Source: Blastocatellia bacterium (lineage in GTDB: Bacteria > Acidobacteriota > Blastocatellia > Pyrinomonadales > Pyrinomonadaceae). From it: a stretch of DNA of 64,000 bases. Location of the stretch: assembly GCA_963765045.1 (NCBI GenBank), contig CAVXVF010000003.1, positions 171,488 through 235,487 of the forward strand, read 5' to 3'. Shown here in pieces: positions 4,377-48,641 of this stretch. How positions within the stretch are numbered: position 1 is the first letter of the stretch; each line of letters begins with the position of its first letter. A program made the position numbers and the translations under genes. Under the pieces are notes generated by a model. That model was given only the letters and a program-made list of their open reading frames with translations, was not told where the DNA came from and searched no databases.

Positions 4377-4384
4377 GAGTATTT

Positions 4385-4591
4385 ATGCAAGTCACAACTA
4401 TTGAAGGTATTGTCAAGAATGGACAGATACAAGTAGACGAAGATATTATTCTGCCAGAGATGACAAAGGTTTTCGTTATTATTCCACGAGATGAAAACGT
4501 CAGGCGTGTTATGAGTCCGAGACTTGTTAACAAAGCCGACGCGAAAATATTCGAAAAAACGGTCGAGGTTGATCTTGATGACGAAATTTGA
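4385..4591 (+). CDS. Small DUF104/AF2212-like (antitoxin-like) protein, 68 aa
   Basis: The N-terminal pattern IEGIVKNGQIQVDEDIILPEMTKVFVIIP matches the 'G.I.P.....LPEG..V.V.I' shape of DUF104 antitoxins. Acidic C-terminus. Overlaps the next ORF by 14 nt. Confidence 0.5.
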   Translation: MQVTTIEGIVKNGQIQVDEDIILPEMTKVFVIIPRDENVRRVMSPRLVNKADAKIFEKTVEVDLDDEI

Positions 4592-4967: not shown

Positions 4968-4976
4968 CATTATTGC

Positions 4977-7067: not shown

Positions 7068-7159
7068 AAAATGTTAATAACTTACTTGAAGTTTTTTCAA
7101 AAAATACCCATAATCAAAACCTAAAATATTTATCGATTCCTAAATACGGAGACTGCTTA

Positions 7160-7453
7160 ATGAATGGCCTAACGGGGATGGAGAAGTTCTCTCATCTCGA
7201 AGATAAGATTTACCTCACAATCGAATTTGCAAAAAAGATTCGGGAAGAAAAGGAAAAGATCGAACGCGAAGCCGTTTCATTGAGACGCGACGCGGCAAGC
7301 CTTATGGCCGAGAATACCAGGCTGGAAGAAAAGGTCGAGAAGCTGCTTTCCGAACGGGACGCTATTCAGCTAAAAGTTGAAGCTATGCTGGACGCGATGA
7401 CGACGATTGATGCCGAGGTTGCCGAGGCGGTTGGGAGGCAGCAGCACGCATGA
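7160..7453 (+). CDS. ZapB-like coiled-coil cell-division protein
   Basis: Entirely heptad/coiled-coil: FSHLEDKIYLTIEFAKKIREEKEKIEREAV..LEEKVEKLLSERD. Translationally coupled (ATGA) to zapA. An alternative start exists at 7178. Confidence 0.6.
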   Translation: MNGLTGMEKFSHLEDKIYLTIEFAKKIREEKEKIEREAVSLRRDAASLMAENTRLEEKVEKLLSERDAIQLKVEAMLDAMTTIDAEVAEAVGRQQHA

Positions 7454-7800
7454 TAAGCGGTAAAGGAAAAGCGGAATCTTCGGAGCAATCGATCAAGGTC
7501 GAGATTTATAATCAGACTTACAGCATCAGGTCCGATGGTGATAACGATTACATTCTGCATTTGGCCGACTATGTTGACGGAAAGATGCGCGAGATTTCAT
7601 CGGGAACGCTGACCGTTGACTCACTCAAGGTCGCAATTCTTGCGGCCCTGCACATCGCGGACGAATATCACCAGGTAAAGAACATGCAGGCCCAGCTTGA
7701 TGCCCAGCTTGGATCGAGAAGTTCGGAATGTTCGGAAATGCTCGACCGCGTGCTGAAGCACAAAGAAGCCGCTCCGCAGGAATTCGAACGCGAGCAGTAG
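7450..7800 (+). CDS. zapA: Cell division protein ZapA
   Basis: IKVEIYNQTYSIRSDGDNDYILHLADYVDGKMREIS...LKVAILAALHIADEY is a typical ZapA core, in the usual position after pheT. Confidence 0.85.
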   Translation: MISGKGKAESSEQSIKVEIYNQTYSIRSDGDNDYILHLADYVDGKMREISSGTLTVDSLKVAILAALHIADEYHQVKNMQAQLDAQLGSRSSECSEMLDRVLKHKEAAPQEFEREQ

Positions 7801-7810
7801 CCGAATTAAA

Positions 7811-7880
7811 AAGGTAAGAGTAAAAAGATAAAGCAAAACGATATCGCTGCTTTATTTTTACTTTTACCTTTTTACTTTTT
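7811..7880 (+). terminator. Long AT-rich hairpin terminator after zapA
   Basis: aaggtaagagtaaaaagataaagc (7811-7834) pairs with gctttatttttacttttacctt (7849-7870), followed by tttacttttt. Confidence 0.6.
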
Positions 7881-7886
7881 ACTTGC

Positions 7887-8040
7887 AGCCCGCTGTGCTA
7901 GACTTTCAATTGGCGAAGGAATTCTACTGCGTAGCTCGTTACTGAACGCAAACATAATTGAGCCAACACTTGAATTGCGGGAGGCTAATGCCGGTTTCGG
8001 TGCAATCTTCCATGTTGAAGATTTGCCATAGGATCCGGCT
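7887..8040 (+). ncRNA. ssrS: Candidate 6S RNA (ssrS): a ~155-nt rod-like imperfect hairpin
   Basis: Lies in a 345-nt gap between convergent genes, directly downstream of zapA (a conserved ssrS position). Hand-folded pairs: agcc 7887-90 with ggct 8037-40; tttcaa 7904-09 with ttgaag 8015-20; tgg 7911-13 with cca 8010-12; aagg 7916-19 with tctt 8006-09; tagc 7932-35 with gcta 7984-87; cgcaa 7947-51 with ttgcg 7975-79. An unpaired 7920-31 / 7988-8005 segment could be the central bubble. G:U pairs favour the + strand. Confidence 0.4.
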
Positions 8041-8146
8041 ATGATGTTTCGAAAGAAGCAGATCGCCGCCCACCTGTTAAAAGCAGGTTCAATTCATGCG
8101 TTTGGAACGGCCATGTGGTTCTCTCTCGCCTTTTATATTTCCCCTC

Positions 8147-8929
8147 TTATAATTTATCCTCGGCAAGCTCATTTTCAAGTTCCCTTTGGATTTCTTCGGT
8201 CATTCGAGCTTCTTCAAGCGCGATCGGCAGTGTCTGCGAACGGGCGGAAAGTTTCTTTAAGGCCAGTTCGGAATCCGCAAGACTTCGTCCGCGAGTTGCT
8301 GCGGCTTCGATCATCTGAAGCCGGGCCTCTGCCTCTGAAAGCATTAATTTAGCTTCCTCGTTTATCGACGCTATCTTTTCCGCATCCCGATCAATTTGTG
8401 AACGGAAATCCCCGGCCTTTTCGCTTTTTAGGCTTTTTAACTTCGATTTACGCCGCTGGGTTAACAACAGTTCTTTCTTTGACGATTTGACGATGCGTGT
8501 TGCCGTTAAACGCGACGCAAGCGTTTCGCGATAAGCGTCGGCAAGCAACAGATCCGATCGTCCAATATCTTTTAGCGCCCGTTTTTCATTGGATTTCAGT
8601 TCGTGTCTGAACCAATCGATCTCCTCGGCCCGGATCCCATCCGCGGCGATCTTTTCACGCATTTCCTTTGTCCAGTTTGAATGCCTGTAGGCAAATATCG
8701 CAGATGCGGTAACACCGGCGAGAAAGCCGATAGCAGTAACAATGATACCGAGCACAAAAATCGTAAATGCGACCGGTGGAGTGGTTCCAAAGAGCAGAGT
8801 GAGCGCGAGAAATAAGCCCGCTGGCACCAGAGTAAGCAGCGGCGGAGCCGTCCAAGCAGCGATCTTTAAATTACGGCCACGTGCAAGTTCCCTGTCCGTA
8901 ACCTTATATTTAGTTAGGTGATCGTCCAT
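8147..8929 (-). CDS. Hypothetical membrane protein (2 TM) with long C-terminal coiled coil
   Basis: 260 aa. Hydrophobic segments AAWTAPPLLTLVPAGLFLALTLLF and FTIFVLGIIVTAIGFLAGVTASAIF, followed by a charged heptad-rich tail. Confidence 0.6.
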   Translation of the reverse strand: MDDHLTKYKVTDRELARGRNLKIAAWTAPPLLTLVPAGLFLALTLLFGTTPPVAFTIFVLGIIVTAIGFLAGVTASAIFAYRHSNWTKEMREKIAADGIRAEEIDWFRHELKSNEKRALKDIGRSDLLLADAYRETLASRLTATRIVKSSKKELLLTQRRKSKLKSLKSEKAGDFRSQIDRDAEKIASINEEAKLMLSEAEARLQMIEAAATRGRSLADSELALKKLSARSQTLPIALEEARMTEEIQRELENELAEDKL

Positions 8930-9039
8930 TTATTCATTTTTACTTTACAAACAGTGCAAACTAAATTCAATCTTGCGGCATCACAAAGTTTAACCCTTCA
9001 AATGTAATGTATTATGATTACGAGAGTTTCTGAACGGGC

Positions 9040-10011
9040 TTGCGTAAACGTATGACTAAATCCATTCTTTTAACGCTGCTGGCGACACTGGTTTCATCTT
9101 TTCTTTTTGCCTCTCGCGGGTCTGCGCAACCTGACCAGGAAAAACAAAAACAGCGGGTGCGTACAGTTTCCATTCCTATCTCGATCTTCACTAAACAGGA
9201 GCTAAAAGAAGGCCAAGCCACGGAATATGTACAGGCGGAGCGACTAATCGTAAAAGAAGACCGCGAAGAACAAACGATACTTTCGATCAGGAGCATTGTC
9301 GATGCACCGCTCGCGTTGGCAATACTCGTTCAGGAAGACCTTGCCTCAAACTTTAATCTTCAGATAAAAGACATCGCGGAATTCATCCGGCGTTTGCCAA
9401 AGGGTTCTCGAGTCATGGTTGCGTATATCCGTGGCGGAAATCTGCAGATAAGGCAGAAATTTACGGACGATCTGGACCTCGCAGCCAAAGGGCTTAGAAT
9501 CGTCACATCCAGTTCCGCTTCGGCTCCACGGAATCCATTTGATGGCGTCATCGATTCTCTCGATCGTTTTGATGCCCTTCCAGCAGGCCGCAGGGCAATA
9601 CTTCTTGTTTCAGACGGCTTGGACGTTTCCCAGGGCATATCGAGCTCTTCACCGGGCCAAAGTATCGATCTGGACCGTGCAATTCTCCGGGCACAGCGAC
9701 GGTCGGTTGCGGTTTATTCGTTCTATTCACCCGCAAGTCTAACGGATGAAGGCGATTCGCGGTTGATTTTGAATGGACAGAGTTCACTTCAAAGACTTTC
9801 GGACGAAACTGGAGGACGTGCTTTTTTTCAGGGCTCGATCGCACCTATAAGCTTCGATCCGTTCTTCAAGGACCTGAGAATATTATTGAATCGCCAGTTC
9901 CTGCTTTCGTATCTGTCGACGCACATGAAAAAGGGATACCATCGTATAGAGGTTATGAGCACCAATCCGGAAGTTAAGATCGAGCACCCGCGAGGTTACT
10001 ATTACCGTTGA
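9040..10011 (+). CDS. VWFA-related domain protein (acidobacterial type), secreted
   Basis: Signal peptide, then AILVQEDL...AILLVSDGLD (MIDAS-like D.S.S context), ending ...IEHPRGYYYR. Resembles the TIGR03436-type family, from memory. Confidence 0.65.
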   Translation: MRKRMTKSILLTLLATLVSSFLFASRGSAQPDQEKQKQRVRTVSIPISIFTKQELKEGQATEYVQAERLIVKEDREEQTILSIRSIVDAPLALAILVQEDLASNFNLQIKDIAEFIRRLPKGSRVMVAYIRGGNLQIRQKFTDDLDLAAKGLRIVTSSSASAPRNPFDGVIDSLDRFDALPAGRRAILLVSDGLDVSQGISSSSPGQSIDLDRAILRAQRRSVAVYSFYSPASLTDEGDSRLILNGQSSLQRLSDETGGRAFFQGSIAPISFDPFFKDLRILLNRQFLLSYLSTHMKKGYHRIEVMSTNPEVKIEHPRGYYYR

Positions 10012-10018
10012 GATCAGG

Positions 10019-10510
10019 CTAGCTAAGCTTCGCCCGGCAAACCGGACAAATACTCACATTTTCCTTCATTAACAACCCGATCCAAAAGAAAATAAAAGTA
10101 AATACGAGAAGAAGAGAAAAGACGATCCAGCCGGCGGTAGAGATTCTTCGTTCGATAATGGGCAAGGAAGTCGTTCCGCAATTCGGACAGCGGTAATTCT
10201 GCGCCATGTATCGTGGACCGCTGTATGCTAGAGGCTGGGCGTTGGTGAAAGGATTGGTGCCTTGCTGCGGATCGTACTGTTGCGTAACCGCGGTTTGTGG
10301 CTTTACTCGCGGCTCGCTCTGAGTTTGATATTCGTCGGTCTTCCAGGAGTACGGACGCGGTGCTTCGTAGTTGTAGTTATTTTGCGAGTAAGGCTCGGCA
10401 GTCTGAAACCTGATGCCGCAAAACCGGCAAAATTGGCTTTGCTCGGCATTTCCCTGTCCGCATTTGGGGCATGTGATCATAGACGTGGCGGTCTGAACGG
10501 AATATTTCAC
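10019..10510 (-). CDS. Zinc-ribbon domain membrane protein
   Basis: CPKCGQ..CRFCG at the N-terminus; CPNCG..CPVCRAKLS flanking a TM segment (AGWIVFSLLLVFTFIFFWIGLL). The start could be the internal MITCPKCG. Confidence 0.65.
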   Translation of the reverse strand: MKYSVQTATSMITCPKCGQGNAEQSQFCRFCGIRFQTAEPYSQNNYNYEAPRPYSWKTDEYQTQSEPRVKPQTAVTQQYDPQQGTNPFTNAQPLAYSGPRYMAQNYRCPNCGTTSLPIIERRISTAGWIVFSLLLVFTFIFFWIGLLMKENVSICPVCRAKLS

Positions 10511-10561
10511 AAATTCACTAACGAATCATACCGTATAAAGTTTCTGTTTTCGACACTGAAT

Positions 10562-11531
10562 TTAGAATTTAATGCGTTCTCCTGTGTTAATAGCTTTGTA
10601 TACGGATTCGACCAGCTCGACAGACTTAAATCCGTCGTCAGCCGTCACGGGCGGCTCGGTGCCATTCAAGATGGCGTCTATAAACGCTTTATCTTCTTGA
10701 ACGTAACCCCATTTTTCTTCTTTCTCGGTCATGTGAAATGACAAAGTCTCGAAATTCGAGTCCATGCCACGCGAGTCAAAAAGCCGTTCCATTTCCTCGG
10801 TCATTATTGTTCTGTGATGACAAAAAACCTCCATGCGTTCGAACGGAAAATGCCAGCTCGCGTCGGACGACGAGGCGAACGTGCAATGAAAACCGCTTTT
10901 GAATTTGAAAATGATAGAAAACTCGTCGATTTCGGGATATTCGTGCTGTGAACCGTAAGCGACAAGCTCTTCGATCTCGCCGAACTGGAAACGCATCATA
11001 TCGAACAAATGAATGGTCGTTTCGTAAAGAAAACCGCCCGTCACATTTACATCGCCCGTCCAGACAGGATTTTTCAGCTCGCCGCGATTCATTTTGATAT
11101 GAGCAGAATGCGGCGTGTCGCTTTGCAGAAGTTCTTTCAGCTTTGCATAAACCGGAGCGTAACGGCGGTTGTGGCCGACTTGAAAAACGCCTTTGCTGGC
11201 ATTTGCAACTGTCGCGAAGTTCCGCTGCGTCTTCGATGCCAATCGAAAATGGCTTCTCGCAAAAGACGTGTTTGCCTTCGGCGATAGCGTTCAGTGCGAT
11301 GTCTTTGTGCGTTTTGTTCGGTGAACACACGAGAACCGCATCGCAATTCGCAAGAAGTTCTTCACGCGACGAACAAACTTTGCCGCCGATGGTTTTCGCC
11401 GTCCGTTCTGCTCGTTCGGGAACGATGTCGAATAACGCAGTAACTTCCGTCCGCTCATCGCGCGAATATATCCTTCCGTGAACGTTGCCGATATAGCCCG
11501 TTCCGACGATTCCGATTCTTACTTTGTCCAT
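10562..11531 (-). pseudogene. Gfo/Idh/MocA family oxidoreductase, interrupted by one frameshift (~11205-11225)
   Basis: The N-terminal Rossmann part MDKVRIGIVGTGYIGNVH...EKPFSIGIEDAAELRD (frame of ORF 10776..11609) continues as ATVANASKGVFQVGHNRRYAP... in the frame of ORF 10562..11242. This could be a sequencing indel. Confidence 0.8.
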
Positions 11532-36347: not shown

Positions 36348-37448
36348 ATGTCCAAAAAGAAAAGAAATGAGCAGAGTCTGAACCCGGCCAACAAAAAGCT
36401 TTCGGCGACAAAAGCGAATAAAGCCCTAATCAAGATCGGGCTGATTGTCGGAATATTGTTGTTCGTATTGGTCGGATTTGGAGCGTTCGTGAGCCGGCAA
36501 AACTCGACTGAAAACATTGCGTCGAGTTCCGCCAATCCACCCGCGCCATTGCCGACTCCGCAATACGCGGCAAACGCTCCAGCCAAGGAATTTTTGTACG
36601 CAGGCAGCAAATTACTGGCCGTATCTGAACCAGTTCAGCCCGCTCCGAATGACCTTGCCGTATGGCGGCTTTCGACCGGAGAGTGGTTCGTAATGGGAGA
36701 ATCCGGAGGCATCACTCAGCAAGTCTGGGGGGTGTCTACTGACAAACCTGCACCCGGCGATTTCGACGGCGACGGCAAGACCGATTTCTGCGTATTCCGG
36801 CCAAGCGAAGGCAAATGGTACATCGTACAATCGGGTACGAATACCTCTAATACACTCACTTTCGGCGTAAACGGAGACATCCCTGTTCCTGCGGATTTCG
36901 ATGGCGACAGCCGTACCGATTTGGCACTGTACCGGCCGAGCAATCAGACCTGGTACATCAAGCACATGGCCTCCGGCAATATCGTGACTCGCCAATATGG
37001 GAATAGCACCGACAAACCGCTGCCGAGCGATTTTGACGGCGACGGCAAAGCCGATATCGCCCTTTGGCGAAACAGCAACGCAACCTGGTATGTCTGGAAG
37101 AGCAGCACCAACTCGGGATCGAGCCTTGTGTGGGGCGCGAGCGGCGATAAACCGGTGCCCGGAGATTTCGACGGTGACGGCAAGACCGATCATGCCGTTT
37201 GGAAAAGCACTAACCTTTGGAGCATCCGCCGCAGTTCGAACGGCACGACAATGACCGCTACATGGGGCTTCCAGGCAAGCGATATTTCCGTTCAGGGCGA
37301 TTATGACCGGGACGGCAAATCCGACGTCGCCGTCTGGCGTCCGTCAAACGGCACCTGGTACATCGTTAAATCGAGCAACGGAACTATTCGCACCCAGGTC
37401 TGGGGCCAAAACGGAGACATCCCCGTCCCGACGCCGTACCGAAGATAG
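36348..37448 (+). CDS. Membrane-anchored FG-GAP/VCBS-repeat (beta-propeller-like) protein
   Basis: N-terminal TM (IKIGLIVGILLFVLVGFGAFV), then about six or seven ~44-aa repeats of D-K-P-x-P-G-D-F-D-G-D-G-K-T-D-x-x-x-[WFY]-R-P-S-x-x-x-W-Y-[IV]. Confidence 0.8.
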   Translation: MSKKKRNEQSLNPANKKLSATKANKALIKIGLIVGILLFVLVGFGAFVSRQNSTENIASSSANPPAPLPTPQYAANAPAKEFLYAGSKLLAVSEPVQPAPNDLAVWRLSTGEWFVMGESGGITQQVWGVSTDKPAPGDFDGDGKTDFCVFRPSEGKWYIVQSGTNTSNTLTFGVNGDIPVPADFDGDSRTDLALYRPSNQTWYIKHMASGNIVTRQYGNSTDKPLPSDFDGDGKADIALWRNSNATWYVWKSSTNSGSSLVWGASGDKPVPGDFDGDGKTDHAVWKSTNLWSIRRSSNGTTMTATWGFQASDISVQGDYDRDGKSDVAVWRPSNGTWYIVKSSNGTIRTQVWGQNGDIPVPTPYRR

Positions 37449-37606: not shown

Positions 37607-40600
37607 ATGATCCCGGAGAAAACGACCATGACCCGATTCAATAAAGCCGCTGACCAAATCCTGAAAGTAAGAAGCATTCAAGTACCTTCCCGACAATTTT
37701 CAGCAATTTTGCTGTTATTTGCTGTGTTGATGCCGATCACCGCGCCGATACCCGCTTGGGCATACAACCTGAACTTGCCGCCGGCGGCTGTCGATGACGG
37801 ATTGCGGTTAACCGCTTCTGGAGAGCATTTTAAAAACTCAATCAGCGATTTTCTGTCGAAGCTGACGAGCGACCCTGCTGCGTTGGTTACGACATCCGCC
37901 GGTGAAAATATAGACAAGGAATCTACATATTCATCGACAGCGTTGGAAAAGCGAGTTGCGGACATAAAGACGGAATTACATGACGGAGAAGTGATAGAGG
38001 TTGGACAGAAGATTTCATTGGCCGCTCGACCGATAGACAAAAAAGGCCTAATTATAAATGGTATCGCCGCTGAGTGGAGCTGTACCAATTCAAAAGTGCT
38101 CCGCATTTTGAACGATTCGGAAGCCGTAGCTATCGCGGAAGGCGAAGCGAAGCTTGTCGTACGTTCGGGGAATGTCATCAGAGAAGTGAGATTTAAAGTC
38201 AACAAGAGAGCTAGAAACGGTGCGAGACCTGTATCGTCCATGCTTGAGCCGCCGGAAATGCCTGTCATTACCGAGCAGCAAGTCGAAAATCTCGTTACCC
38301 CGGAAAATAATCTTGGCAATCCAATTGGACAAACAGAAATGGGTTCGCGGTCCGCGTCAGCGGCACTAAGAACGCGGGAGCGGTTCGGAAGCTCGAATTT
38401 CAGTTTTGATATTCCGGCGGCATCGCTGCCAGGTCGGGGAATCGATGCCTCAGTCGGAATCACATACAACAGCCGCATATGGAATAAGGCGTCATTTGGC
38501 GGAACGGATGTCTATACTTTTAACACGGATGGGAGTTGGCTGGCTCCGGGCTTTGAGATGGGATTTGGCGAGTTGACTCCATACGGATCGGGTACCGTAA
38601 GTGGCTACATGCTTACAAGTCCTGACGGCTCGAGACATCAACTGATTTACAAACAGGCGTCGGGTCAATGTTCGATTTTTGAATCGGCTGATGGGACGTT
38701 TATCGAAACCACGATCTGTGGTATTTATACGACCTCAACCTTGAACGTTGTTTTTCCGGACGGGACACAGGTGATGTATGGTGCGTCTACCGCTTCCGGA
38801 AAACGTTTTCCAATCCGAATTACCGACCGCAACGGCAACATGCTTACCATTGCGTATGTGCAAAACGACACTCAAGGCAAGATTTCGTACATCCGCGATA
38901 CTTTGAACCGGTATATCAATTTCTACTACGACACGCCTGATAATAAGCTGGTGGCGATCACCGTTCCGGGTTTTGACGGCGGTGCCGAACGGCAAACGAT
39001 CAGGTTTTATTACGCTGACATGACTTTCAACTGGATCGGGCGATTTGACGGCACGGTAAATGCCCCGACCACCGTTAAGGTCCTGAAGTATGTATATTTC
39101 CCAGGCACGCAAACAGGTTTTAAATACGATTATTCGCCGTATTTCGGAATGATTCACAAAATCTGGCAAATGCGCGGAATGCTGGTGAGCAGCAACAGCA
39201 CAACCGATACCGGTACTGTTACAAGCGAAGGAACATGGGCCGCATGGACAAGTTACAATTACCCGACAACTCCAGTCCCGACTCTGACTGACGTTCCAAA
39301 ATACACTCAGCGGACCGATGATTGGCTGGGCCGAACGAGCGCCGTTCCACAGACAAATTTCTCAATCAGCGAAGACGTGACACCGGCGGGTTGCGATATA
39401 AGCACCGGAGCCTGCACTGGCACGCGAAACGTCACGGTTACGGCGCCGGACGGCACAAGAAGTATTTCGGTTTCGAAGATAAGACCTTCAATCGATTGGG
39501 AAAACGGTCTGTTGCAGGAAACCAGAATCGAGACCGGCGCGGTCGGGTCGGAAGTAGTTTGGTCTAAGACAAAGCTCTTTTGGGAACAAGGAGCGGGCAG
39601 CACATTGCCCGGTCGAGATAATCCTCGTCTGGACAAAATCGAGGTTACGAACGACGCCAACCAGACAAGAGCAACAACCTTCGATTACGACAATTACAAT
39701 AATCAAACCGTTGTACGGGAACATGATTTTGCCGCGCCAAATAGTGAAGGAACCGAACTAAGAAGAACCGAGACGACGTATGAGACAGGGCTAGGGTGGA
39801 CAAACAATCGGCTTCTTCGCCTGCCCAAAGAGATAAAGACGATCGTCGGCACGGCGACCGTTTCTAAGACCGCTTACGAATATGACAAGAACGGCGAAGC
39901 AGCGGAGACCGCACTCACTCCGAGGCTAGATATTTCCGCTAGCGTGCATGATATAAGATACGACCCCTCGGCGCCGTCGGGACAGCAGTGCGCTCCGCAA
40001 TGCGAGGAGCCGCATCGTTGTTGTTGGACGGTTCACGTTTATCAGGCTTATACGCGGTTTCGCGGAAACGTAACAAAGATCACGGCGTTTTCGGATGCGA
40101 CGCTGGCAAGTGACCCGAACGCTTCGGTTTCGACGGTGAAATATGACATCGCCGGAAACGTAACGGAATCATCGTCAAGCTGCTGCGAACTGAAAACAAC
40201 GCAGTATTCGAACACGAATCACTATGCCTATCCGATGTCCGAAACACGCAACGGGCAGGGATTATCGTTAACCACGAGCGCGACTTACGATGTGCCGACC
40301 GGTTTTGTAAAAACCGCGACGGATGAGAACAATCAGACATCCATGCTGACCTACGACCCTAACAATTTGCGAGTCATCAGAAGCGACGGTCCGGTTGGAA
40401 CGGGCATCTGGTCAACGACGGAGTATAATGATTCGGTGTTTCCTTATCATGTAAAAACGACAAGCAGTCTGGACGCGACGCGGAGTGTATCGGCGTGGAG
40501 TTTTTCAAACGGGCGCGGACAAGGGTTTAGAAGCCGGAGCCAGACAACGGGAGGATATCTTTCGAGCGAGGTCGAATTTGACGTAATGGGTCGTGCCGAG

Positions 40601-43105
40601 AAGAGTTACAATCCGCACACGGTTACCAGTCTGACGGCCGCCCTTCCGACCGGAATAAAATTCTCGCGTATTACATCGCTTGACGGTTTGGGGCGGACGC
40701 TATCGACGACGCTGCCGGATAACACAATTGTCACGGCTACTTACAGCGGTCTTGTGGCGACCGCAACCGATCAGGCTGGAAAACAAAGAAGGCAAATAGC
40801 CGATGCTCTCGGCAGAACTGCGCGTGTCGACGAACCTGATGCGACGGGAAATCTCGGCTTGGTAACTTCGCCGGTTCAACCGACATTTTACGAATACGAC
40901 GGGAACGATAATCTGACAAAAGTTACGCAGTCGATACCGGGCGTGGTGACGCAGGAAAGATTGTTCAAGTACGACAGCCTTTCGCGATTGACACACGAAA
41001 AGCAGGTCGAGGCGAATGCGACGCTCGACAACAACGGCGTCAAGGTCGGGGCGGGCGGCCAGTGGACGGGCGTTTATAAGTACGACTTGGACAGCCTGCT
41101 GGTTGAAGGTTTCGATGCCCGCGGCGTGAAAACGGCGTTTACTTATGACGGTTTGAACCGTGTCAAAACGATTGCATACACCGGCGAGACGGGCTATCAG
41201 ACGCCGACGGCGACTTATACTTACGACGAGACGGAAACCAATTTCTTCAACAACGGGCGGCTGACGAAAGTTCAAACGGCGGCGAATGCCACATACGGAA
41301 TACCGGAGACAATCCAGAATTATCGGTATGACAAAATCGGGCAGGTGACAAAGCACGTCCAAAACATCGGTAATCAGAGTTATCAGCTTGAGTATGGATA
41401 CAATCTGGCCGGACAGTTAATTTCAGAGAAATATCCGTCAGGAAAGATCGTCAATATGACGGTCGATAATTTCGGACGGCTTTCGACGGTTGCGGACGCA
41501 CAGAGGACTTATCTGAGCAGTGTTGGTTTCAACAATCAGGGTCTGCTGTCGCAGATGAATCTGGGTAATGGAACTTCTGAAACGTTTTCTTACAATGACC
41601 GTTTTCAGATGACTTCGCAGAGTTTAAATAAGGGCGCTGAGGTTTTGCAGAAGTATGATTATTCTTACGGCACGGTCGATCTGGCAACAGGAACGGTTAA
41701 TACGCAAACCAATAATGGTCAGCTTTCCAAAATAGAAGGCTGGATAGGTGCCAACAAGCAGTGGAGCCAGAGGTTTGGTTATGACGAGCTTGGCCGATTA
41801 AAAGAAGCCCGCGAGTACAAGCAGGGGGTGAATACTCAGCTTACATACAAACAGGTGTTCGATTTCGACCGTTTCGGGAATCTCTATCGTAAAGCGGCGA
41901 GCAACCCAACGGCGGGTCAGCAGAATCCGCTTACATACACGCCTATCGAAGATGCCCACATTGACAGGGCCAAAAACCGTCTGACAACCGGAACGACCTA
42001 TGACGACGCCGGACAGGTTGTGAATGATACGAAGTTTCGTTCGATGTCGTTCGCCTATGACGCGAACGGCCATCAGGTGAAAGCTATGAGAGCCAGCGTC
42101 CCCGACGCGTGGACGGTTTATGACGCACTCGGAAACAGGGTTGCCACGAAGATCAACGACATCTGGCAATACATGGTTTATGATGCGTTTGGCAAATTAG
42201 TTGCTGAATACGGCGTCGCTTCCGAAACTCTCGGCGGCGTTAAATATCTACAACAAGATTGGCAGGGTTCAGTTCGCACTACGACCAATTCAAACGGTTT
42301 CGTGGTTGCGAGGACAGATCATCAAGCCTTTGGTGACGATGTCGGTTACGGAGTCGGGTTGCGTTCAATCGAGCAGGGATATTCGGTAGGAAAGGTTGCA
42401 AAACAAGGTTACGGTTTAACCGAGAATGATCAAGGTTCTGGACAGCAGCATACTTGGTTTAGGAAACTCGAAACCTCCGCCGGAAGATGGACGGGGCCTG
42501 ATCCGTATAAAGGGTCGATGTCGCTCGGCAATCCGCAATCGTTTAACCGGTATTCTTATGTTGAGAATCAGCCGACAAACTTTGTCGATCCGAGTGGGCT
42601 TTTCATAGTAGCGATTTGTTCTTTTGTTGGCACCTTCATTATCAATTTTGATACTCGTTGGCAGCAAACTGTGGATGTATATTTATGTACCATTATCGAC
42701 TTCGGTGGGGGCGGCCCAATCTTTCCCGTAGAACCTACATCTGGCGGTGGGGTGGGCGAACCTCAATTCGTCAATGCCAAGTTCGACGATGAGTACAAAA
42801 ATTACGATGCGTGCGTTAAAGCTGAAAATCAAAAATGTTTGAACAAAGGCCGTAAAAATTTCAATGAAAATGCTGTGTGGGATGCAGCTTCTTTACCGTT
42901 TACTGGAGGTGCGGGTATTATTTACGCGATGATCAAAAGCGCCGCTCTATGGAGCGCCCGCCTCGCTTTTGGTGCGATTGGAATAGGCGGAGGAATTGCT
43001 CTCGGTCTTTACAGGGCAGCACAGAGAGCGCAAGGGGTTGAGAATGATTGCAAGGAAGAAGTTCCAGCCAAATGTAAAGAATATAAGAGGAGTAACGTGG
43101 CATGA
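37607..43105 (+). CDS. RHS/YD-repeat polymorphic toxin, full length (1832 aa)
   Basis: N-terminal hydrophobic segment FSAILLLFAVLMPITAPIPAWA and a Big_2-like Ig domain (~aa 125-200). Many YD repeats (YDIAGNVTES, YEYDGNDNLTKV, YDSLSRLTHE, YDGLNRVKT, YDELGRLKEA, YDDAGQVVND, YDALGNRVAT, YDAFGKLVAE). The core ends with NQPTNFVDPSGL (Asp codon at 42587), followed by a 167-aa unique tip. Confidence 0.93.
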   Translation: MIPEKTTMTRFNKAADQILKVRSIQVPSRQFSAILLLFAVLMPITAPIPAWAYNLNLPPAAVDDGLRLTASGEHFKNSISDFLSKLTSDPAALVTTSAGENIDKESTYSSTALEKRVADIKTELHDGEVIEVGQKISLAARPIDKKGLIINGIAAEWSCTNSKVLRILNDSEAVAIAEGEAKLVVRSGNVIREVRFKVNKRARNGARPVSSMLEPPEMPVITEQQVENLVTPENNLGNPIGQTEMGSRSASAALRTRERFGSSNFSFDIPAASLPGRGIDASVGITYNSRIWNKASFGGTDVYTFNTDGSWLAPGFEMGFGELTPYGSGTVSGYMLTSPDGSRHQLIYKQASGQCSIFESADGTFIETTICGIYTTSTLNVVFPDGTQVMYGASTASGKRFPIRITDRNGNMLTIAYVQNDTQGKISYIRDTLNRYINFYYDTPDNKLVAITVPGFDGGAERQTIRFYYADMTFNWIGRFDGTVNAPTTVKVLKYVYFPGTQTGFKYDYSPYFGMIHKIWQMRGMLVSSNSTTDTGTVTSEGTWAAWTSYNYPTTPVPTLTDVPKYTQRTDDWLGRTSAVPQTNFSISEDVTPAGCDISTGACTGTRNVTVTAPDGTRSISVSKIRPSIDWENGLLQETRIETGAVGSEVVWSKTKLFWEQGAGSTLPGRDNPRLDKIEVTNDANQTRATTFDYDNYNNQTVVREHDFAAPNSEGTELRRTETTYETGLGWTNNRLLRLPKEIKTIVGTATVSKTAYEYDKNGEAAETALTPRLDISASVHDIRYDPSAPSGQQCAPQCEEPHRCCWTVHVYQAYTRFRGNVTKITAFSDATLASDPNASVSTVKYDIAGNVTESSSSCCELKTTQYSNTNHYAYPMSETRNGQGLSLTTSATYDVPTGFVKTATDENNQTSMLTYDPNNLRVIRSDGPVGTGIWSTTEYNDSVFPYHVKTTSSLDATRSVSAWSFSNGRGQGFRSRSQTTGGYLSSEVEFDVMGRAEKSYNPHTVTSLTAALPTGIKFSRITSLDGLGRTLSTTLPDNTIVTATYSGLVATATDQAGKQRRQIADALGRTARVDEPDATGNLGLVTSPVQPTFYEYDGNDNLTKVTQSIPGVVTQERLFKYDSLSRLTHEKQVEANATLDNNGVKVGAGGQWTGVYKYDLDSLLVEGFDARGVKTAFTYDGLNRVKTIAYTGETGYQTPTATYTYDETETNFFNNGRLTKVQTAANATYGIPETIQNYRYDKIGQVTKHVQNIGNQSYQLEYGYNLAGQLISEKYPSGKIVNMTVDNFGRLSTVADAQRTYLSSVGFNNQGLLSQMNLGNGTSETFSYNDRFQMTSQSLNKGAEVLQKYDYSYGTVDLATGTVNTQTNNGQLSKIEGWIGANKQWSQRFGYDELGRLKEAREYKQGVNTQLTYKQVFDFDRFGNLYRKAASNPTAGQQNPLTYTPIEDAHIDRAKNRLTTGTTYDDAGQVVNDTKFRSMSFAYDANGHQVKAMRASVPDAWTVYDALGNRVATKINDIWQYMVYDAFGKLVAEYGVASETLGGVKYLQQDWQGSVRTTTNSNGFVVARTDHQAFGDDVGYGVGLRSIEQGYSVGKVAKQGYGLTENDQGSGQQHTWFRKLETSAGRWTGPDPYKGSMSLGNPQSFNRYSYVENQPTNFVDPSGLFIVAICSFVGTFIINFDTRWQQTVDVYLCTIIDFGGGGPIFPVEPTSGGGVGEPQFVNAKFDDEYKNYDACVKAENQKCLNKGRKNFNENAVWDAASLPFTGGAGIIYAMIKSAALWSARLAFGAIGIGGGIALGLYRAAQRAQGVENDCKEEVPAKCKEYKRSNVA
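41225..42601 (+). repeat. rhs core segment duplicated in the two downstream orphan cassettes
   Basis: Colinear with 43681-45060 (with a one-codon length difference) and, from ~41390 onward, with 46378-47620. Includes an 80-nt perfect match, 42413-42492 = 44872-44951. Confidence 0.9.
42602..43102 (+). other. RHS C-terminal toxin domain 1 (unassigned; glycine-zipper-like hydrophobic segment)
   Basis: Sequence after DPSGL: FIVAICSF..VYLCTIIDFGGGGP..GGGVGEP..YDACVKAENQKC..GGAGIIYAMIKSAALWSARLAFGAIGIGGGIALGLYRAA. I recognise no catalytic motif. Confidence 0.7.
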
Positions 43106-43539
43106 TTTCTAAGTCTAAATACTCGTCAAAAGATTTTATCCAAGATGTCGCCGTTGCAGCTTTGATTACGACGATGTGTATGCTGGCATTTTTGCGGCGG
43201 GATTATTTGTATGGATCCCAAGATTACGATGGTATCGTATCTGTGTTTTTTTATGTGGGAATTGGGCTAAAAATCATTTTTGTAATAGGCTCCCTTTATT
43301 TACTATTGAGGTTGCAATACCCACAGAGTTTAGTTGCCGGAATAGTTTTGGTCGGTTGCTGGCTGCTTGCTGAATGTTTCCCGAATTCCGTATCAGTTTT
43401 ATTCTTAAAAGAACTGAATGACGTTTTCGGGTATTTTGGGGGCGTATTTATTTACCCGATTTGGCGGTGGCAGAGGCTAACGAACACCAATGCGGAGGTC
43501 TTGGACGACAAACCCACTACTTTGAATTTGAATAACTAG
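43102..43539 (+). CDS. Putative immunity protein 1 (4-TM membrane protein)
   Basis: The ATG overlaps the rhs stop (ATGA). 145 aa with about 4 hydrophobic helices, AT-richer than the flanking sequence. Confidence 0.65.
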   Translation: MISKSKYSSKDFIQDVAVAALITTMCMLAFLRRDYLYGSQDYDGIVSVFFYVGIGLKIIFVIGSLYLLLRLQYPQSLVAGIVLVGCWLLAECFPNSVSVLFLKELNDVFGYFGGVFIYPIWRWQRLTNTNAEVLDDKPTTLNLNN

Positions 43540-43680: not shown

Positions 43681-45060
43681 GACGAGACCGAGAGCGGTTT
43701 CCACAACAACGGGCAGTTGACAAAAGTTCAAACGGCGGCGAATGCCACATACGGAATACCGGAGACAATACAGAATTATCGTTACGACAAAATCGGACAG
43801 GTTACAAAGCATGTTCAGACCATCGGCAATCAGAGTTATCAGCTTGAGTATGGATACAACCTCGCCGGACAGTTGGTGAGCGAGAAGTATCCGAGCGGCA
43901 AGATCGTCAACATGACGGTCGATAATTTCGGAAGATTGCAAACTGTCGCCGACGCACAGCGGACTTATCTGAGCAGTGTCGGTTTCAACAATCAGGGTCT
44001 GCTGTCGCAGGTGAATCTCGGCAACGCAACGAGCGAAACTTTTTCGTACAATGACCGTTTTCAGATGACTTCCCAGAGCCTGAATCGCGGTTCGGAAGTT
44101 TTGCAAAAATATGATTATTCTTACGGCACGGTCGATCTGGCAACAGGAACGGTTAATACACAAACCAATAATGGTCAGCTTTCCAAAATAGAAGGTTTTA
44201 TCGGAGCAAACAAGCAGTGGTCGCAGCGGTTCGGTTACGACGAGCTTGGGCGCTTGAAGGAAGCGAGAGAGTACAAGCAGGGCACGAATACTCAACTAAC
44301 TTACAAACAGGTGTTCGACTTCGACCGCTTTGGGAATCTCTATCGAAAGAACGCAAGCAACCCAACCGCAGGGCAGCAGAACCCGCTTATATACACGCCG
44401 ATTGAGAATGCGGACATAGATAAAACTAAAAATCGTCTCACAACCGGAACAACTTACGACGATGCCGGACAGGTTGTGAATGATACGAAGTTTCGTTCGA
44501 TGAGTTTTGCCTACGACGCAAATGGCCGTCAGGTCAACTCTACGAACTCTATAAACTCTACGAACGCTCAAACAGTCTATGACGCACTTGGAAACAGAGT
44601 CGCCACGAAGATCAACGACATTTGGCAGTACATGGTCTATGACGCTTTCGGGAAATTGGTTGCTGAATACGGCACGGCGAGCGAAGGTCTCGGCGGTGTG
44701 AAGTACGTTCAGCAGGACTGGCAAGGCAGTGTCAGAACCGTGACAAATAACAACGGCTTCGTGGTCGCCCGAACGGATCACCAGGCATTCGGCGGCGAAG
44801 TCGGTTACGGAACCGGGCAACGCTCCGTCGAACAAGGCTACAACGTCGGTAAGGTTACAAAACAAGGCTACGGTTTAACCGAGAATGATCAAGGTTCTGG
44901 ACAGCAGCATACTTGGTTTAGGAAACTCGAAACCTCCGCCGGAAGATGGACAGGTCCCGATCCGTACAAGGGTTCAATGTCGCTTGGCAATCCACAGTCG
45001 TTTAATCGATATTCTTACGTTGAAAACCAGCCGACGAATTTTGTTGATCCAAGTGGATTA
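43681..45060 (+). repeat. rhs core copy within orphan cassette 1
   Basis: DETESGFHNNGQLTKVQTAANATYGIPETIQNYRYDKIGQVTKHVQ... parallels main-gene aa ~1207-1665. Confidence 0.9.
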
Positions 45061-45714
45061 CTCTACATCTTATATTGCACATATATTGGATACATGGCCG
45101 ATATGCCCGGTTTTCCAAGTGTGTATTCTTGCCATTTGGTGGAAATTGGCGGCGGCGGCATCGGTGGTCCTAGGGAGCCGCCTGTTCACGGCGGCGGTGT
45201 TGGCAGCGGCGGCAGAGAGACACCACCAGTCGATAGCGATTGTGAAAAATTTGCCAAGTTAGTTGGTGAAATCGCCAAGAGTGCTAAAAATGCCAAAGAT
45301 TTTGCGGATCAGATGGCTAAAAGATTTCTTGGCGTTAACGGAGCCTCATTGAGTGAATTACGCAGGGCGAATGAGGTTGGCGGTGGTGAATCGTTTGGTA
45401 GCTCGGGATTCAAAGAGCAATTTCAGGGGCCTGGCAATCAGGTGCGACACTTTACAGGAGGCCTGATCGGTGGTTACTTGTTTGGAGCAACGGGCGGCGA
45501 TTGGGGAATGTGGTTTGGGGAGGACGACCCAGAGGATATTGCGCTTAATGCGGTTAGCAGTGCTTTAGGAGCCAGAATAGTGGACCCTACGCCTGCGACG
45601 ACAAAGGAGGTTTCCGGTGGGTACAGAAGCGAAATGAGACGTATCGTAAATGTCCCTGCCAATCCTGGATATACTGATTTGGCGGATCGTATTAGGAAAC
45701 AAGTCTGTGAATAA
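43717..45714 (+). CDS. Orphan RHS C-terminal cassette 1 (core fragment plus 217-aa toxin tip 2); no canonical start
   Basis: The in-frame homology begins at 43681, just after a TAG at 43642. Only a TTG (43717) is available as a start. The core ends NQPTNFVDPSGL (Asp at 45046), then a unique tip contains ..GFKEQFQGPGNQVRHFTGGLIGGYLFGATGGDWGMWFGEDDPEDIALN... Confidence 0.8.
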   Translation: MTKVQTAANATYGIPETIQNYRYDKIGQVTKHVQTIGNQSYQLEYGYNLAGQLVSEKYPSGKIVNMTVDNFGRLQTVADAQRTYLSSVGFNNQGLLSQVNLGNATSETFSYNDRFQMTSQSLNRGSEVLQKYDYSYGTVDLATGTVNTQTNNGQLSKIEGFIGANKQWSQRFGYDELGRLKEAREYKQGTNTQLTYKQVFDFDRFGNLYRKNASNPTAGQQNPLIYTPIENADIDKTKNRLTTGTTYDDAGQVVNDTKFRSMSFAYDANGRQVNSTNSINSTNAQTVYDALGNRVATKINDIWQYMVYDAFGKLVAEYGTASEGLGGVKYVQQDWQGSVRTVTNNNGFVVARTDHQAFGGEVGYGTGQRSVEQGYNVGKVTKQGYGLTENDQGSGQQHTWFRKLETSAGRWTGPDPYKGSMSLGNPQSFNRYSYVENQPTNFVDPSGLLYILYCTYIGYMADMPGFPSVYSCHLVEIGGGGIGGPREPPVHGGGVGSGGRETPPVDSDCEKFAKLVGEIAKSAKNAKDFADQMAKRFLGVNGASLSELRRANEVGGGESFGSSGFKEQFQGPGNQVRHFTGGLIGGYLFGATGGDWGMWFGEDDPEDIALNAVSSALGARIVDPTPATTKEVSGGYRSEMRRIVNVPANPGYTDLADRIRKQVCE

Positions 45715-45786: not shown

Positions 45787-46341
45787 ATGTTCGGGAAAAA
45801 ACTTTCAATCGTATTGTTCGGATGCTTGGTTTTTAGTTCTTGCGGCAAAGGCTACGACACTAAAAAGGTTGTTGAGTCTTGGGAGACAGGAAATCAACAG
45901 TTAAAAATCCGTGTTGCATCATATCCAGAAAATATCCATCTTCTTTATGGGGGAGCATATTATGTTTTTGAGTCATCTAGAAATGGCGAATGGGTAGAGA
46001 TTATGACTGTTAGGCATGATGATCTGACTCCTATTGACAAAAATGGCGTGAAATTCGTTAACGAAAATATTTGCTATGTTTATTCGGGTTCGGGGTTTGC
46101 TGTTACTACGGATGTTGGGAATACGTGGACTCTATGGGATGGTCGGGAACATAATTACTTGGATAAAGAGGTTGAATATGGCGTGATAACAAAGATAGAA
46201 ATCCGAAGCGATGGTCAGGGTGAAATGATCGTATGGGTATTTGCACCCAACAAGAATGATTGTCAAACGGTATTGACAAGCGACTACGGACAAACTTGGG
46301 TGAACGGTAATTTACTTGACAAAGGTAAATGTTCTCTCTAG
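45787..46341 (+). CDS. Putative immunity protein 2: lipoprotein with BNR/Asp-box motifs
   Basis: Lipobox VFSSCGKG and two Asp-box-like S/T-x-D-x-G-x-T-W motifs (TTDVGNTW, TSDYGQTW). Located directly after toxin tip 2. Confidence 0.6.
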   Translation: MFGKKLSIVLFGCLVFSSCGKGYDTKKVVESWETGNQQLKIRVASYPENIHLLYGGAYYVFESSRNGEWVEIMTVRHDDLTPIDKNGVKFVNENICYVYSGSGFAVTTDVGNTWTLWDGREHNYLDKEVEYGVITKIEIRSDGQGEMIVWVFAPNKNDCQTVLTSDYGQTWVNGNLLDKGKCSL

Positions 46342-48214
46342 TTTTGCGCGAAAAAAAACGCCTTGGATAGATGCACAGCAATACAATCTTGAGTACGGCT
46401 ACAATCTGGCCGGGCAATTGATTACGGAGAAATATCCTTCTGGAAAGATCGTCACAACGAGCTATGATGCGAACGGCAGATTGTCGGGCGTCGCCGATCC
46501 TTCTCGGACTTATCTGAGCGGTATGCAGTATTTGGGCAAGGGCAATTCGGTCAGCCAGATGACGCTTGGCAACGGAACGGTTGAGAACTATACGCTTAAC
46601 GACCGTTTTCAAATGACCGGACAGGAGTTGAAACGCGGCACCGAGGTTCTGCAAAAGTACAATTACGGTTATGGCGAGATCGACGGTTCGGGGAATCTTG
46701 TTACGACAAAAAATAACGGTCAGCTTGGAAGAATAGAAAGCTACATCGGCACGGCAAAGCAATCGACGCAGAAGTTTCTTTACGATCACATTGGCCGTTT
46801 GAAAGAATCGGCCGAATATCGCGGTGATAACAATAGTCTGACTTACAAGCAGAAGTTCGATTTTGACAGGTTTGGGAATCTTTATCGGAAAGCCGCGAGC
46901 AACCCAACGGCGGGACAGGCGAATCCATTGGCTTACACTCCGATTGAAGAGACGACGACACCGGGAACGGGCGATATCGAAAAGTCGACGAATCGATTCC
47001 GCACCGGCACGACGTATGACGATGCTGGGCAAGTTGTCGCGGATAATAAATTCCGTTCGATGAACTTTGCCTACGACGCGAATGGCCGTCAGGTCAACTC
47101 TACGAACTCTACAAACTCTACGAACGCTCAAACCGTCTATGATGCGAGCGGAAACAGAGTTGCGACAAAGATCAATAACATCTGGCAGTATATGATCTAC
47201 GACGCCTTCGGAAAACTTGTGGCCGAATACGGCGTAGCGTCAGAAGGCGTGGGCGGAGTAAAATATCTCCAGCAGGATTGGCAAGGCAGCGTGAGAACCG
47301 TAACAAACAATAATGGATTTGTCGTCGGAAGAACGGATCACCAAGCTTTTGGTAATGACGTGGGATACGGAGTCGGGCAACGCTCGGTCGAGCAGGGCTA
47401 TTCGGGTGGTAAAGCTACTCGACAGGGCTATGGATTGACCGAACGCGACGACGCGACGGGACAAGATCACACGTGGTTCAGAAAGAACGAAAACCTCGCC
47501 GGACGCTGGACAAGTCCCGATCCTTATAATGGCTCGATGTCCCTCGGCGACCCGCAGAGTTTCAACCGGTACAGTTATGTCCAAAGTGATCCAACGAATT
47601 TCGTTGATCCGAGTGGGTTGCAAATGGCAATTTGTTATATCGACGGATTCCAGGCAAACTGCAGCACGGCGTTTCACTTGGTGCAATCGGGTGGCGGCTA
47701 CGTCAGTTGGCACAGCGTCGATTGGTTGACGGTTGTCAACGAATACACCCTGATTGATGACCGCTGGACGCGTACTGGTCAATATCTTCATTTTAATCCT
47801 TTATACAATTTTAACCCAGAGGGCAATCTTGGTCCTCGTGGTGGTGGCGGCGGTAACAAAAATAATTCTGAAGATGATTTCTCGGATTGTCGAGATGAAG
47901 TCAGGGCGGAATTTATGTCGGATATATTTGCCGCAAGTGATAAATTTAATAAAGCTAATTCTGACCACATTCTGGATCCGGCATCTCTGAAAACTGCGGC
48001 CCTCGGAATCGTTGGTCTGGCGGGAGGTATTCTTTTCAGGTCTCCGTCGTCACTGTTGAGTGGCTTGGCTGCTTTGTCTTGGGTTCAGGGTGCTTCTTAC
48101 GTCAATTTATATACTCTAGCAAAAGATGTTTGGAAAGCGTATAGGAAAGAAAGAAAGCAGATGGCTAGATGCACACCGATTTTGATCAATAAAAGTAGAA
48201 GTGTTTCGGTATGA
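46316..48214 (+). CDS. Orphan RHS C-terminal cassette 2 (core fragment plus 197-aa toxin tip 3); no canonical start
   Basis: Homology to the main core starts ~46378 (YNLEYGYNLAGQLITEKYPSGKIV). The track ORF begins at a TTG that overlaps the preceding gene. The core ends SDPTNFVDPSGL (Asp at 47606), followed by a unique tip. Confidence 0.8.
   Translation: MTKVNVLSSFARKKTPWIDAQQYNLEYGYNLAGQLITEKYPSGKIVTTSYDANGRLSGVADPSRTYLSGMQYLGKGNSVSQMTLGNGTVENYTLNDRFQMTGQELKRGTEVLQKYNYGYGEIDGSGNLVTTKNNGQLGRIESYIGTAKQSTQKFLYDHIGRLKESAEYRGDNNSLTYKQKFDFDRFGNLYRKAASNPTAGQANPLAYTPIEETTTPGTGDIEKSTNRFRTGTTYDDAGQVVADNKFRSMNFAYDANGRQVNSTNSTNSTNAQTVYDASGNRVATKINNIWQYMIYDAFGKLVAEYGVASEGVGGVKYLQQDWQGSVRTVTNNNGFVVGRTDHQAFGNDVGYGVGQRSVEQGYSGGKATRQGYGLTERDDATGQDHTWFRKNENLAGRWTSPDPYNGSMSLGDPQSFNRYSYVQSDPTNFVDPSGLQMAICYIDGFQANCSTAFHLVQSGGGYVSWHSVDWLTVVNEYTLIDDRWTRTGQYLHFNPLYNFNPEGNLGPRGGGGGNKNNSEDDFSDCRDEVRAEFMSDIFAASDKFNKANSDHILDPASLKTAALGIVGLAGGILFRSPSSLLSGLAALSWVQGASYVNLYTLAKDVWKAYRKERKQMARCTPILINKSRSVSV
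46378..47620 (+). repeat. rhs core copy within orphan cassette 2
   Basis: More diverged than copy 1, but colinear through to DPSGL. Confidence 0.85.
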
Positions 48215-48353
48215 CTCTGAAATCCAGGATTAACTTGGGTTATCCATTTTAGCGTGGCACTTTATTAAATAGTTGAACCAGAACCTATCGCTGGTCAGTT
48301 TTTGAACCGAATATGGAGTAATTTTGTACAAATCCCTGAAAAAGGTCACCATC

Positions 48354-48641
48354 ATGTACGGCCTGAAAAATGATATGCGAATAATAAAGCAGATTAATAG
48401 GATTCAAGAGTTATTGTTTACATCTCCGTCTAAGATTCCCCAAATCTTTCACATGTATCCATCTCTATTATTGTTGATCGGTATAAGTATTTTAGGGACG
48501 TCGGCCCTTGGATTCTTTTGGGCAATAGGCCATGAAAAAAATATCATTCTCTTCGCTTTGTCTATTGTCTTATTCTTGTTAAGCATTTCAATTCTGATTT
48601 CGTATTGGCGAATTTACCATTGTAAGCATCCAGTAAAATAG
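48354..48641 (+). CDS. Putative immunity protein 3 (2-TM membrane protein)
   Basis: MYGLKNDMRIIKQ... with helices YPSLLLLIGISILGTSALGFFWAI and IILFALSIVLFLLSISILISYW. AT-rich, and lies downstream of toxin tip 3. Confidence 0.55.
   Translation: MYGLKNDMRIIKQINRIQELLFTSPSKIPQIFHMYPSLLLLIGISILGTSALGFFWAIGHEKNIILFALSIVLFLLSISILISYWRIYHCKHPVK

Follow-up and report, generated by a model that had tools for sequence, protein, structure and literature searches.

An orphan RHS cassette in a Blastocatellia bacterium encodes a rare, probably membrane-acting toxin tip that is not detectably related to the neighboring tip 1

A stretch of 64,000 nucleotides from a Blastocatellia bacterium of the family Pyrinomonadaceae (contig CAVXVF010000003.1 of assembly GCA_963765045.1, positions 171,488 to 235,487; hereafter the window) carries a rearrangement hotspot (RHS) locus with three C-terminal tips, the first on an rhs gene of full length, the other two on orphan rhs fragments. 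The question raised by this locus is what its third tip represents: whether it is a distant paralog of the first, as a preliminary description based on the sequence alone had proposed, and how its product would act. Tip 3 and the small open reading frame (ORF) behind it, imm3, are best read as a displaced orphan RHS cassette, which probably encodes a rare toxin of about 105 residues acting on membranes and is not detectably related to tip 1.

The orphan ORF that ends in tip 3, P0005, contains an RHS core without an N-terminal delivery region of its own, and residues 366-435 match the Pfam family RHS_repeat and the TIGR03696 model Rhs_assc_core. Since this core ends at ..PTNFVDPSGL, tip 3 starts at position 47621; this start and the strings quoted in the preliminary description were all recovered as given there. 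The cassette combines the features of an RHS polymorphic toxin, namely an autoproteolysis motif of the PxxxxDPxGL type, a variable domain directly behind it and a conserved small ORF. When 1.84 billion representative proteins were scanned in full with HMMER, tip 3 matched only P0007 (38% identity, E 9.6e-14), an orphan C-terminal RHS fragment from a metagenome contig of JGI (JGI 3300009095, Ga0079224_100031749; locus L027, 4938-6069). The third member, L045 from genome G120 (phmmer E 6.8e-5; z 9.1 by Smith-Waterman), was obtained by harvesting tips: RHS core ends were located in 200 genomes of the same family, 122 of which gave matches, and 120 tips were fetched. A profile scan found tip 3 in two of 400 genomes of the family, L045 being the only additional match, and neither a 400-genome sample of the phylum nor a contig scan across genomes returned any relative or locus beyond those already known; a metagenome scan, which ran on a poly-Gly pattern, came back to the contig of P0007. 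Tip 3, tip 1 and the three small ORFs match no Pfam or NCBIfam family and no PDB chain sequence. Tip 3 and imm3 are an uncatalogued and very rare family, known from three loci.

The short P0007 fragment directly abuts a gene for a hydrolase/OsmC fusion and a RecQ helicase gene, with no upstream rhs body on the 7.6-kb contig, and the locus is an isolated orphan toxin-immunity pair. A Tetraspanin assignment of the predicted protein P0006 was dismissed as hydrophobic-helix noise, its 20.4 bits lying below the cut-off of 32.1.

The ORF downstream of tip 3, first called at 48324-48641, is hydrophobic, and a homologous ORF of 85-88 residues with two predicted transmembrane (TM) segments follows the tip in all three tip 3 loci, lying directly 3' of P0007 (L027, 5812-6069) and of L045. 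Pairwise E values within the imm3 family are 4e-13, 3e-7 and 1e-4, and a profile search with the family retrieved only the G120 copy. The homologs behind all three tips fix the start of imm3 at the ATG at 48375, and the one behind L045 independently confirms L045 as a true relative of tip 3. The small membrane immunity candidate that had been proposed to follow tip 3 is thereby borne out, as its homologs follow both other relatives. It could be argued that the cassette is a decaying, non-functional remnant and the downstream ORF a chance hydrophobic frame, given that the orphan has neither a start nor a delivery region of its own, that the family is very rare, and that no convincing promoter precedes imm3 (a scan gave two weak sites against 2.3 expected and is uninformative). 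However, the toxin and imm3 frames are both intact, and toxin and small ORF have been kept as a pair without stops in three distant loci at 20-41% identity, which points to selection on both and renders decay highly improbable.

The toxin domain of tip 3 is built, in order, from an acidic N-terminal helix (net charge about -6), a hydrophobic helix pair and a basic C-terminal helix (net charge about +7). The two hydrophobic helices, TAALGIVGLAGGILF and LLSGLAALSWVQGASYV, are rich in small residues and joined by a conserved R-S-x-P-S turn, and the maximum 19-residue hydropathy of the tip is 1.65. Positions G57, I58, R61/S62 and G69 are conserved in alignments of the family, as is an RKER/RRER motif within the C-terminal basic helix. 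Set beside the canonical glycine zipper, GxxxGxxxG in a hydrophobic helix, tip 3 contains one GxxxG motif (GLAGG) in addition to small-xxx-small repeats and P0007 likewise contains one (GVIVG); L045 has GxxxGxxxGxxxG, and tip 1 has GxxxGxxxG (GIGGGIALG). An AlphaFold2 model of tip 3, computed from a two-sequence alignment, is all-helical, with helices at 3-38, 41-60 and 63-117 and a predicted local distance difference test score (pLDDT) of 76.

A domain that leaves no room for an enzyme, paired with a membrane-embedded immunity partner, makes insertion into the cytoplasmic membrane with loss of the membrane potential the most likely mode of action. In the proposed course of events, the full-length RHS protein, which carries a Sec signal, would be exported and would undergo autoproteolysis at DPSGL, while a disulfide between the two cysteines that bracket the tip 3 domain would close it. 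The hydrophobic hairpin would then enter the cytoplasmic membrane of the target, probably as an oligomer, and dissipate its membrane potential; in the producer, imm3 would reside in the membrane and block insertion or assembly through helix-helix contacts. The orphan tip 3 would stay silent until recombination through the shared core placed it onto the full-length rhs gene, and imm3 may be expressed on its own. Several points weigh against this mechanism: it draws on composition, on analogy and on a medium-confidence model from two sequences; a Foldseek search of the PDB with that model gave no significant structural relative, the best matches (E 0.27-0.5) being long helical hairpins of the alpha-pore-forming toxins MakA, SmhB and AhlB and receptor-binding hairpins of colicins; and the hydrophobic helices, at 15-17 residues each, are short for a classical TM span.

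The shortness of these helices would also suit a Gly-rich hydrophobic segment that serves translocation or entry, with killing by the binding or blocking of a membrane or periplasmic target and no pore. Precedents for such a division of labor have been described: the glycine zipper of Tde1, an effector of a type VI secretion system (T6SS), is reported to be necessary for translocation and not for toxicity (PMC10240207), and the separate entry domains of the ionophore toxins of contact-dependent growth inhibition (CDI) hijack membrane proteins (PMC11630599). Nevertheless, an all-helical domain of about 105 residues excludes an extra catalytic module, no enzymatic family is matched, and the immunity partner is integral to the membrane, where neutralization within the bilayer would place it; an entry function is accordingly considered quite unlikely, and membrane insertion with loss of potential remains the preferred mechanism.

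The closest functional analog of tip 3 and imm3 is the Tse5-CT/Tsi5 pair of Pseudomonas aeruginosa (RhsP1, PA2684/PA2683). Tse5-CT inserts into membranes and depolarizes cells, and it is neutralized by Tsi5, a small inner-membrane protein with two TM segments (PMC9637101). Tse5-CT and tip 3 both stand at the C-terminus of an RHS protein, whose shell encapsulates the toxin until release at a conserved cleavage motif, a step proposed for tip 3; both have predicted TM and amphipathic helices and no enzymatic signature. They nevertheless show no detectable similarity, the tip 3 profile retrieving no PDB chain at E<=10, although the deposited Tse5 chains may not cover the CT region. Delivery differs as well: Tse5 depends on a T6SS, with a PAAR-like N-terminus and VgrG4, whereas the RHS protein of the window carries a Sec signal and T6SS genes are absent from its vicinity, and tip 3, unlike Tse5, sits within the Cys bracket that typifies this RHS clade of acidobacteria. 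The Tse5 precedent for RHS-delivered membrane-depolarizing toxins means that the kind is not new; tip 3 and imm3 would form a rare family that is new within this kind, in which RHS proteins deliver small membrane toxins matched by immunity proteins of the membrane. The few non-enzymatic RHS payloads would thereby gain a compact toxin of about 105 residues.

Two other groups of membrane-active polymorphic toxins are more distant. The CDI ionophore toxins (the CdiA-CT EC93 group) dissipate the membrane potential; their helical membrane domain contains a putative glycine zipper, and TM immunity proteins counter them (PMC11630599). Like tip 3, they are polymorphic C-terminal toxins paired with small membrane immunity proteins (CdiI); however, they have a predicted five-helix bundle, a separate N-terminal entry domain and CdiA/CdiB delivery and occur in beta- and gamma-proteobacteria, whereas tip 3 comprises three long predicted helices in about 105 residues. 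Tox-WTIP, the only pore-forming domain in the 2012 catalog of polymorphic toxins, spans the membrane with two helices and can be found fused to RHS repeats (Zhang et al. 2012; PMC3482391). The Wx[ST]IP motif of its second helix is missing from tip 3 (SWVQG) and P0007 (MWYQA), and tip 3 has no Pfam match. The RxxR of Tox-WTIP lies in its first helix, whereas the RKER/RRER of the tip 3 family does not lie in a TM helix, and Tox-WTIP has been reported from proteobacteria.

The tip 1 family, with which tip 3 had been aligned by eye, has relatives in three genomes of the same bacterial family (G138, G115 and G095; E 2.7e-9 to 6.9e-6). It is marked by four invariant cysteines, arranged as C-x7-C ... 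C-x7-C, and by YFNxN and ENxC motifs. The profile scan found tip 1 in four of the 400 family genomes, and a word-indexed search with the tip 1 region returned only the self match. The AlphaFold2 model of tip 1 (pLDDT 62) shows terminal helices at 2-36 and 70-105 around short, low-confidence hydrophobic helices at 44-53 and 56-65. The positions of its cysteines add up (11+98 = 19+90 = 109), as two disulfides stapling antiparallel terminal helices would require. Immunity proteins of the imm1 type have about four TM helices and a C-terminal LNLN(D/N). The two tip families share the RHS clade, the linker format, the Cys bracket, charged terminal helices, a Gly-rich hydrophobic middle and a membrane ORF. 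In contrast to tip 1, however, the tip 3 family has only two cysteines and neither YFNxN nor ENxC, and its immunity protein, of 88 residues in the window, has two TM segments and no LNLN tail; between the families of imm1 and imm3, which are unrelated, hhalign gave a probability of 0.2%.

Direct comparisons lend no support to the proposed distant paralogy of tips 1 and 3. BLASTP aligned just two short, non-colinear segments (E 0.02 and 0.06), and in phmmer searches of the six-frame translation of their own genome neither tip retrieved the other at E<=10; searches of the same genome with the family profiles likewise returned only the tip of origin. The hidden Markov model (HMM) of tip 1 scored tip 3 at E 2.2-6.5 (E 6.5 corresponding to rank 29 of 124 tips), and the tip 3 HMM scored tip 1 at E 0.34 to >10. 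The HMM-HMM comparison that the preliminary description had itself suggested gave no significant profile similarity, the outcome it had named as counting against its claim: hhalign of the tip 1 family (four sequences) against the tip 3 family (two to three sequences) gave probabilities of 0.2-2.3% with P 0.02-0.24 (core sets 1.7%, P 0.03; extended sets 0.2-2.3%), over only 16-22 columns, every one of them around the N-terminal Cys. A comparison of the tip 1 family with a cluster of G138_cas3, L074, L064 and L060 served as positive control and reached 55-73% over 71-83 columns. Smith-Waterman scores against shuffled sequences gave z=2.7 for tip 1 and tip 3, with -1.0 to 3.2 for the other 11 family pairs and a median of 1.36 when hydrophobic tips of similar type were paired across clusters (196 pairs). 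When decoys were included in iterative HMM searches, these stopped at four and three members, the next-best matches being reversed decoys.

Two considerations speak on the other side. The core profiles showed a weak excess, scoring 17.2 against 10.6+-1.9 for column shuffles, none of 150 of which reached that value, the signal being confined to the 16 columns around the N-terminal Cys. In addition, both profiles are shallow (3-4 sequences), so a very remote homology could still underlie the two families, an eventuality to which only a small share of the probability is given. The corresponding explanation would make tips 1 and 3 true, very distant paralogs, with one ancestral membrane toxin behind the whole class and an arms race that erased the signal. 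It would account for the common order of helical elements, for two AlphaFold2 models that both show long terminal helices flanking short hydrophobic ones, for the score above all 150 column shuffles, for profile matches of the tip 1 family to another cluster, Tc3 (55-73%), and of the tip 3 family to T37 (26%), and for a marginal phmmer chain from tip 1 to G115 (2e-10), from G115 to G138_cas2 (3e-5), from there to L045 (1.3e-3) and from L045 to tip 3 (6.8e-5). However, the direct profile-profile probability does not exceed 2.3%, and with extended families the shuffle signal is gone, as 19 of 150 shuffles reach the real score. The differences in cysteine count, motifs and immunity family also argue against common descent, which is regarded as unlikely. 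The phmmer chain was rejected as a bridge: comparisons of real with reversed sequences reach E 5e-4 to 2e-3, and tip 1 matches its own reverse at 0.002, so that the link of 1.3e-3 between G138_cas2 and L045 is noise. Real-level scores from reversed decoys, together with non-significant profiles, indicate that chance and a shared format suffice to account for the resemblance of tips 1 and 3. The small hydrophobic tip domains are near-palindromic in build, and the finding that reversed decoys equal supposed relatives in score calls for caution in aligning such domains by eye.

None of the elements on which the alignment by eye had relied points to kinship. The preliminary description had listed the same order of elements in both tips, and a Cys, an FN motif, DAASL, a Gly-rich segment, a basic stretch and a late Cys are indeed present in tip 1 in that order; their agreement with tip 3, however, stays at the level of chance plus shared format. 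Tip 1 reads FNEN (FNxN) and not FNxxN, and the FNKAN of tip 3 corresponds to ENVRN in P0007 and FKSVS in L045. Within the two families, neither DAASL (tip 1) nor DPASL and FNKAN (tip 3) are conserved, and a pentamer with four of five identical residues, like DAASL and DPASL, is shared by 1203 of 1715 unrelated tip pairs (70%). A Gly-rich hydrophobic stretch and a basic stretch are generic for small membrane-inserting helices.

The cysteines belong to a format that characterizes the RHS clade. Among the closest cores, the standard tip has two early cysteines in a pre-toxin module, a poly-Gly linker and a Cys where the toxin domain starts, frequently as part of acidic-[YF]-x-x-C, and its last Cys lies within 25 residues (<=25) of the C-terminus; the two early cysteines and the poly-Gly run of the tip 3 linker conform to it, and the C-terminal Cys of the tip 3 family stands in MARC, MERC or FATC. 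This Cys-bracket format was found in 34 of 57 complete tips of the 60 closest cores, versus six of 52 from more distant cores, and in 50 of 65 tips with two early cysteines. Tip 2 has it as well, as do a Peptidase_M23 tip (E 1e-23) and several other clusters with enzyme-like motifs. The bracket thus occurs whatever the toxin type, so that the "D-x-C" and the final Cys reflect a delivery format of the Sec-dependent RHS clade and are no sign of kinship; the likeness of tips 1 and 3 results from this bracket and from the common build of small membrane-inserting helical toxins. If the bracketing cysteines form a disulfide, RHS payloads would fold oxidatively or be closed outside the cytoplasm, which is not expected of T6SS-type RHS toxins.

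A four-Cys scaffold, with two pre-toxin cysteines and one at each end of the toxin domain, recurs at 42602-42781, 45061-45240 and 47621-47890 of the window and in loci L035-L093, which suggests disulfide-closed payloads in a Sec-exported RHS system. In loci L044 (G120:C68) and L069 (G191:C2), the same bracket encloses a Peptidase_M23 domain (E 1e-23); the payloads here are probably peptidoglycan hydrolases, which would fit toxins acting outside the cytoplasm.

Small hydrophobic tips extend well beyond tips 1 and 3. In a set of 65 Cys-bracketed toxin domains, composed of the harvested tips, those of the window and other added tips, about 21 are short (95-165 residues) and hydrophobic, and these fall into roughly twelve clusters or singletons. 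An ORF with two or more TM segments lies 3' of 10 of the 13 harvested hydrophobic tips checked, versus one of 12 non-hydrophobic ones. In a leave-one-cluster-out test of a class HMM, reversed decoys ranked as high as the left-out members, a result that also tells against the paralog explanation and that, since such a profile cannot separate members from decoys, defines an architectural class and not a demonstrable homologous family. The idea that RHS-delivered membrane toxins form a family whose immunity partners diversify therefore holds insofar as such tips are common and mostly accompanied by multi-TM ORFs, but not in its claim of common descent, which is not demonstrable. It is conceivable, if doubtful, that all small Cys-bracketed hydrophobic helical tips of the Sec-exported acidobacterial RHS clade form one ancient superfamily, whose members would be membrane toxins built as a disulfide-closed helical hairpin and would have diversified together with polytopic immunity proteins to a point at which sequences no longer reveal the relationship. 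Such a superfamily would unite the tip 1 and tip 3 families with at least six more clusters, about a third of the sampled tips, and would make the disulfide bracket a new general device for the packaging or activation of RHS toxins that fold in an oxidizing compartment.

The features of the locus are collected in Table 1.

Table 1. Coordinates of the RHS genes, tips and immunity candidates in the window.
Feature	Position	Strand	Remarks
Full-length rhs	37607-43105		1832 residues; Sec-type signal sequence; tip 1 follows ..PTNFVDPSGL
Tip 1 toxin domain (P0001, residues 1726-1832)	42782..43105	+	From alignment with G138, G115 and G095
imm1	43102..43539	+	145 residues; polytopic membrane protein; homolog beside every tip 1 relative
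Orphan rhs fragment with tip 2	43717-45714		Start-less; small ORF 3' of the fragment
Orphan rhs ORF with tip 3 (P0005)	46316-48214	+	Start-less; small ORF 3' of it
Orphan rhs core fragment (P0005, residues 1-435)	46316..47620	+	From translation; ends ..PTNFVDPSGL, with DPSGL at 47606-47620
Tip 3	47621-48214	+	In orphan ORF P0005
Tip 3 pre-toxin linker (residues 436-514)	47621..47857	+	Early Cys at residues 440 and 449; Trp-rich stretch; poly-Gly run
Tip 3 toxin domain (residues 515-632, then stop)	47858..48214	+	Cys525 at 47888-47890; Cys619 at 48170-48172
Tip 3 hydrophobic core	47993..48103	+	TAALGIVGLAGGILF, RSPSS turn, LLSGLAALSWVQGASYV; GxxxG and several small-xxx-small motifs
imm3 candidate	48375..48641	+	88 residues; two predicted TM segments; start moved from TTG 48324 to conserved ATG (MRIIKQ..)

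No T6SS genes occur near the rhs locus, the neighbors being genes for Nramp, an MscS-cNMP channel, an FG-GAP protein and a TPR protein. The FG-GAP repeat protein (366 residues, 36348-37448) is encoded immediately upstream of the full-length rhs gene on the same strand and may be an accessory or delivery partner of a T6SS-independent RHS protein. Tip 3 has an unusually long pre-toxin linker with a Trp/Tyr-rich stretch, YVSWHSVDWLTVVNEYTLIDDRWTRTGQYLHFNPLYNF, that neither P0007 nor tips 1 and 2 contain; it might represent an additional module for entry or a receptor module.

All four proteins of the imm1 family (43102-43539 in the window; L033, 6534-7055; the L005 and L006 ORFs) end in ..(I/T/S)(T/A/S)L(N/D)LN(D/N/K) after an acidic stretch. 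A relative of tip 2 at L068 (G191:C2:866-2225) is followed by an ORF of 153 residues with about five hydrophobic segments, whereas tip 2 of the window is followed by a lipoprotein, so that similar toxins may pair with different types of immunity protein. Locus L033 (G138:C16:1672000-1683217, positions 655-10999) encodes an RHS protein of 1975 residues with a tip 1-like end and, after it, at least three orphan cassettes, two of them frameshifted; each of these combines a different small hydrophobic Cys-bracketed tip with a small TM ORF of its own. The genome that harbors this locus has at least 25 RHS core-end matches (95 candidates).

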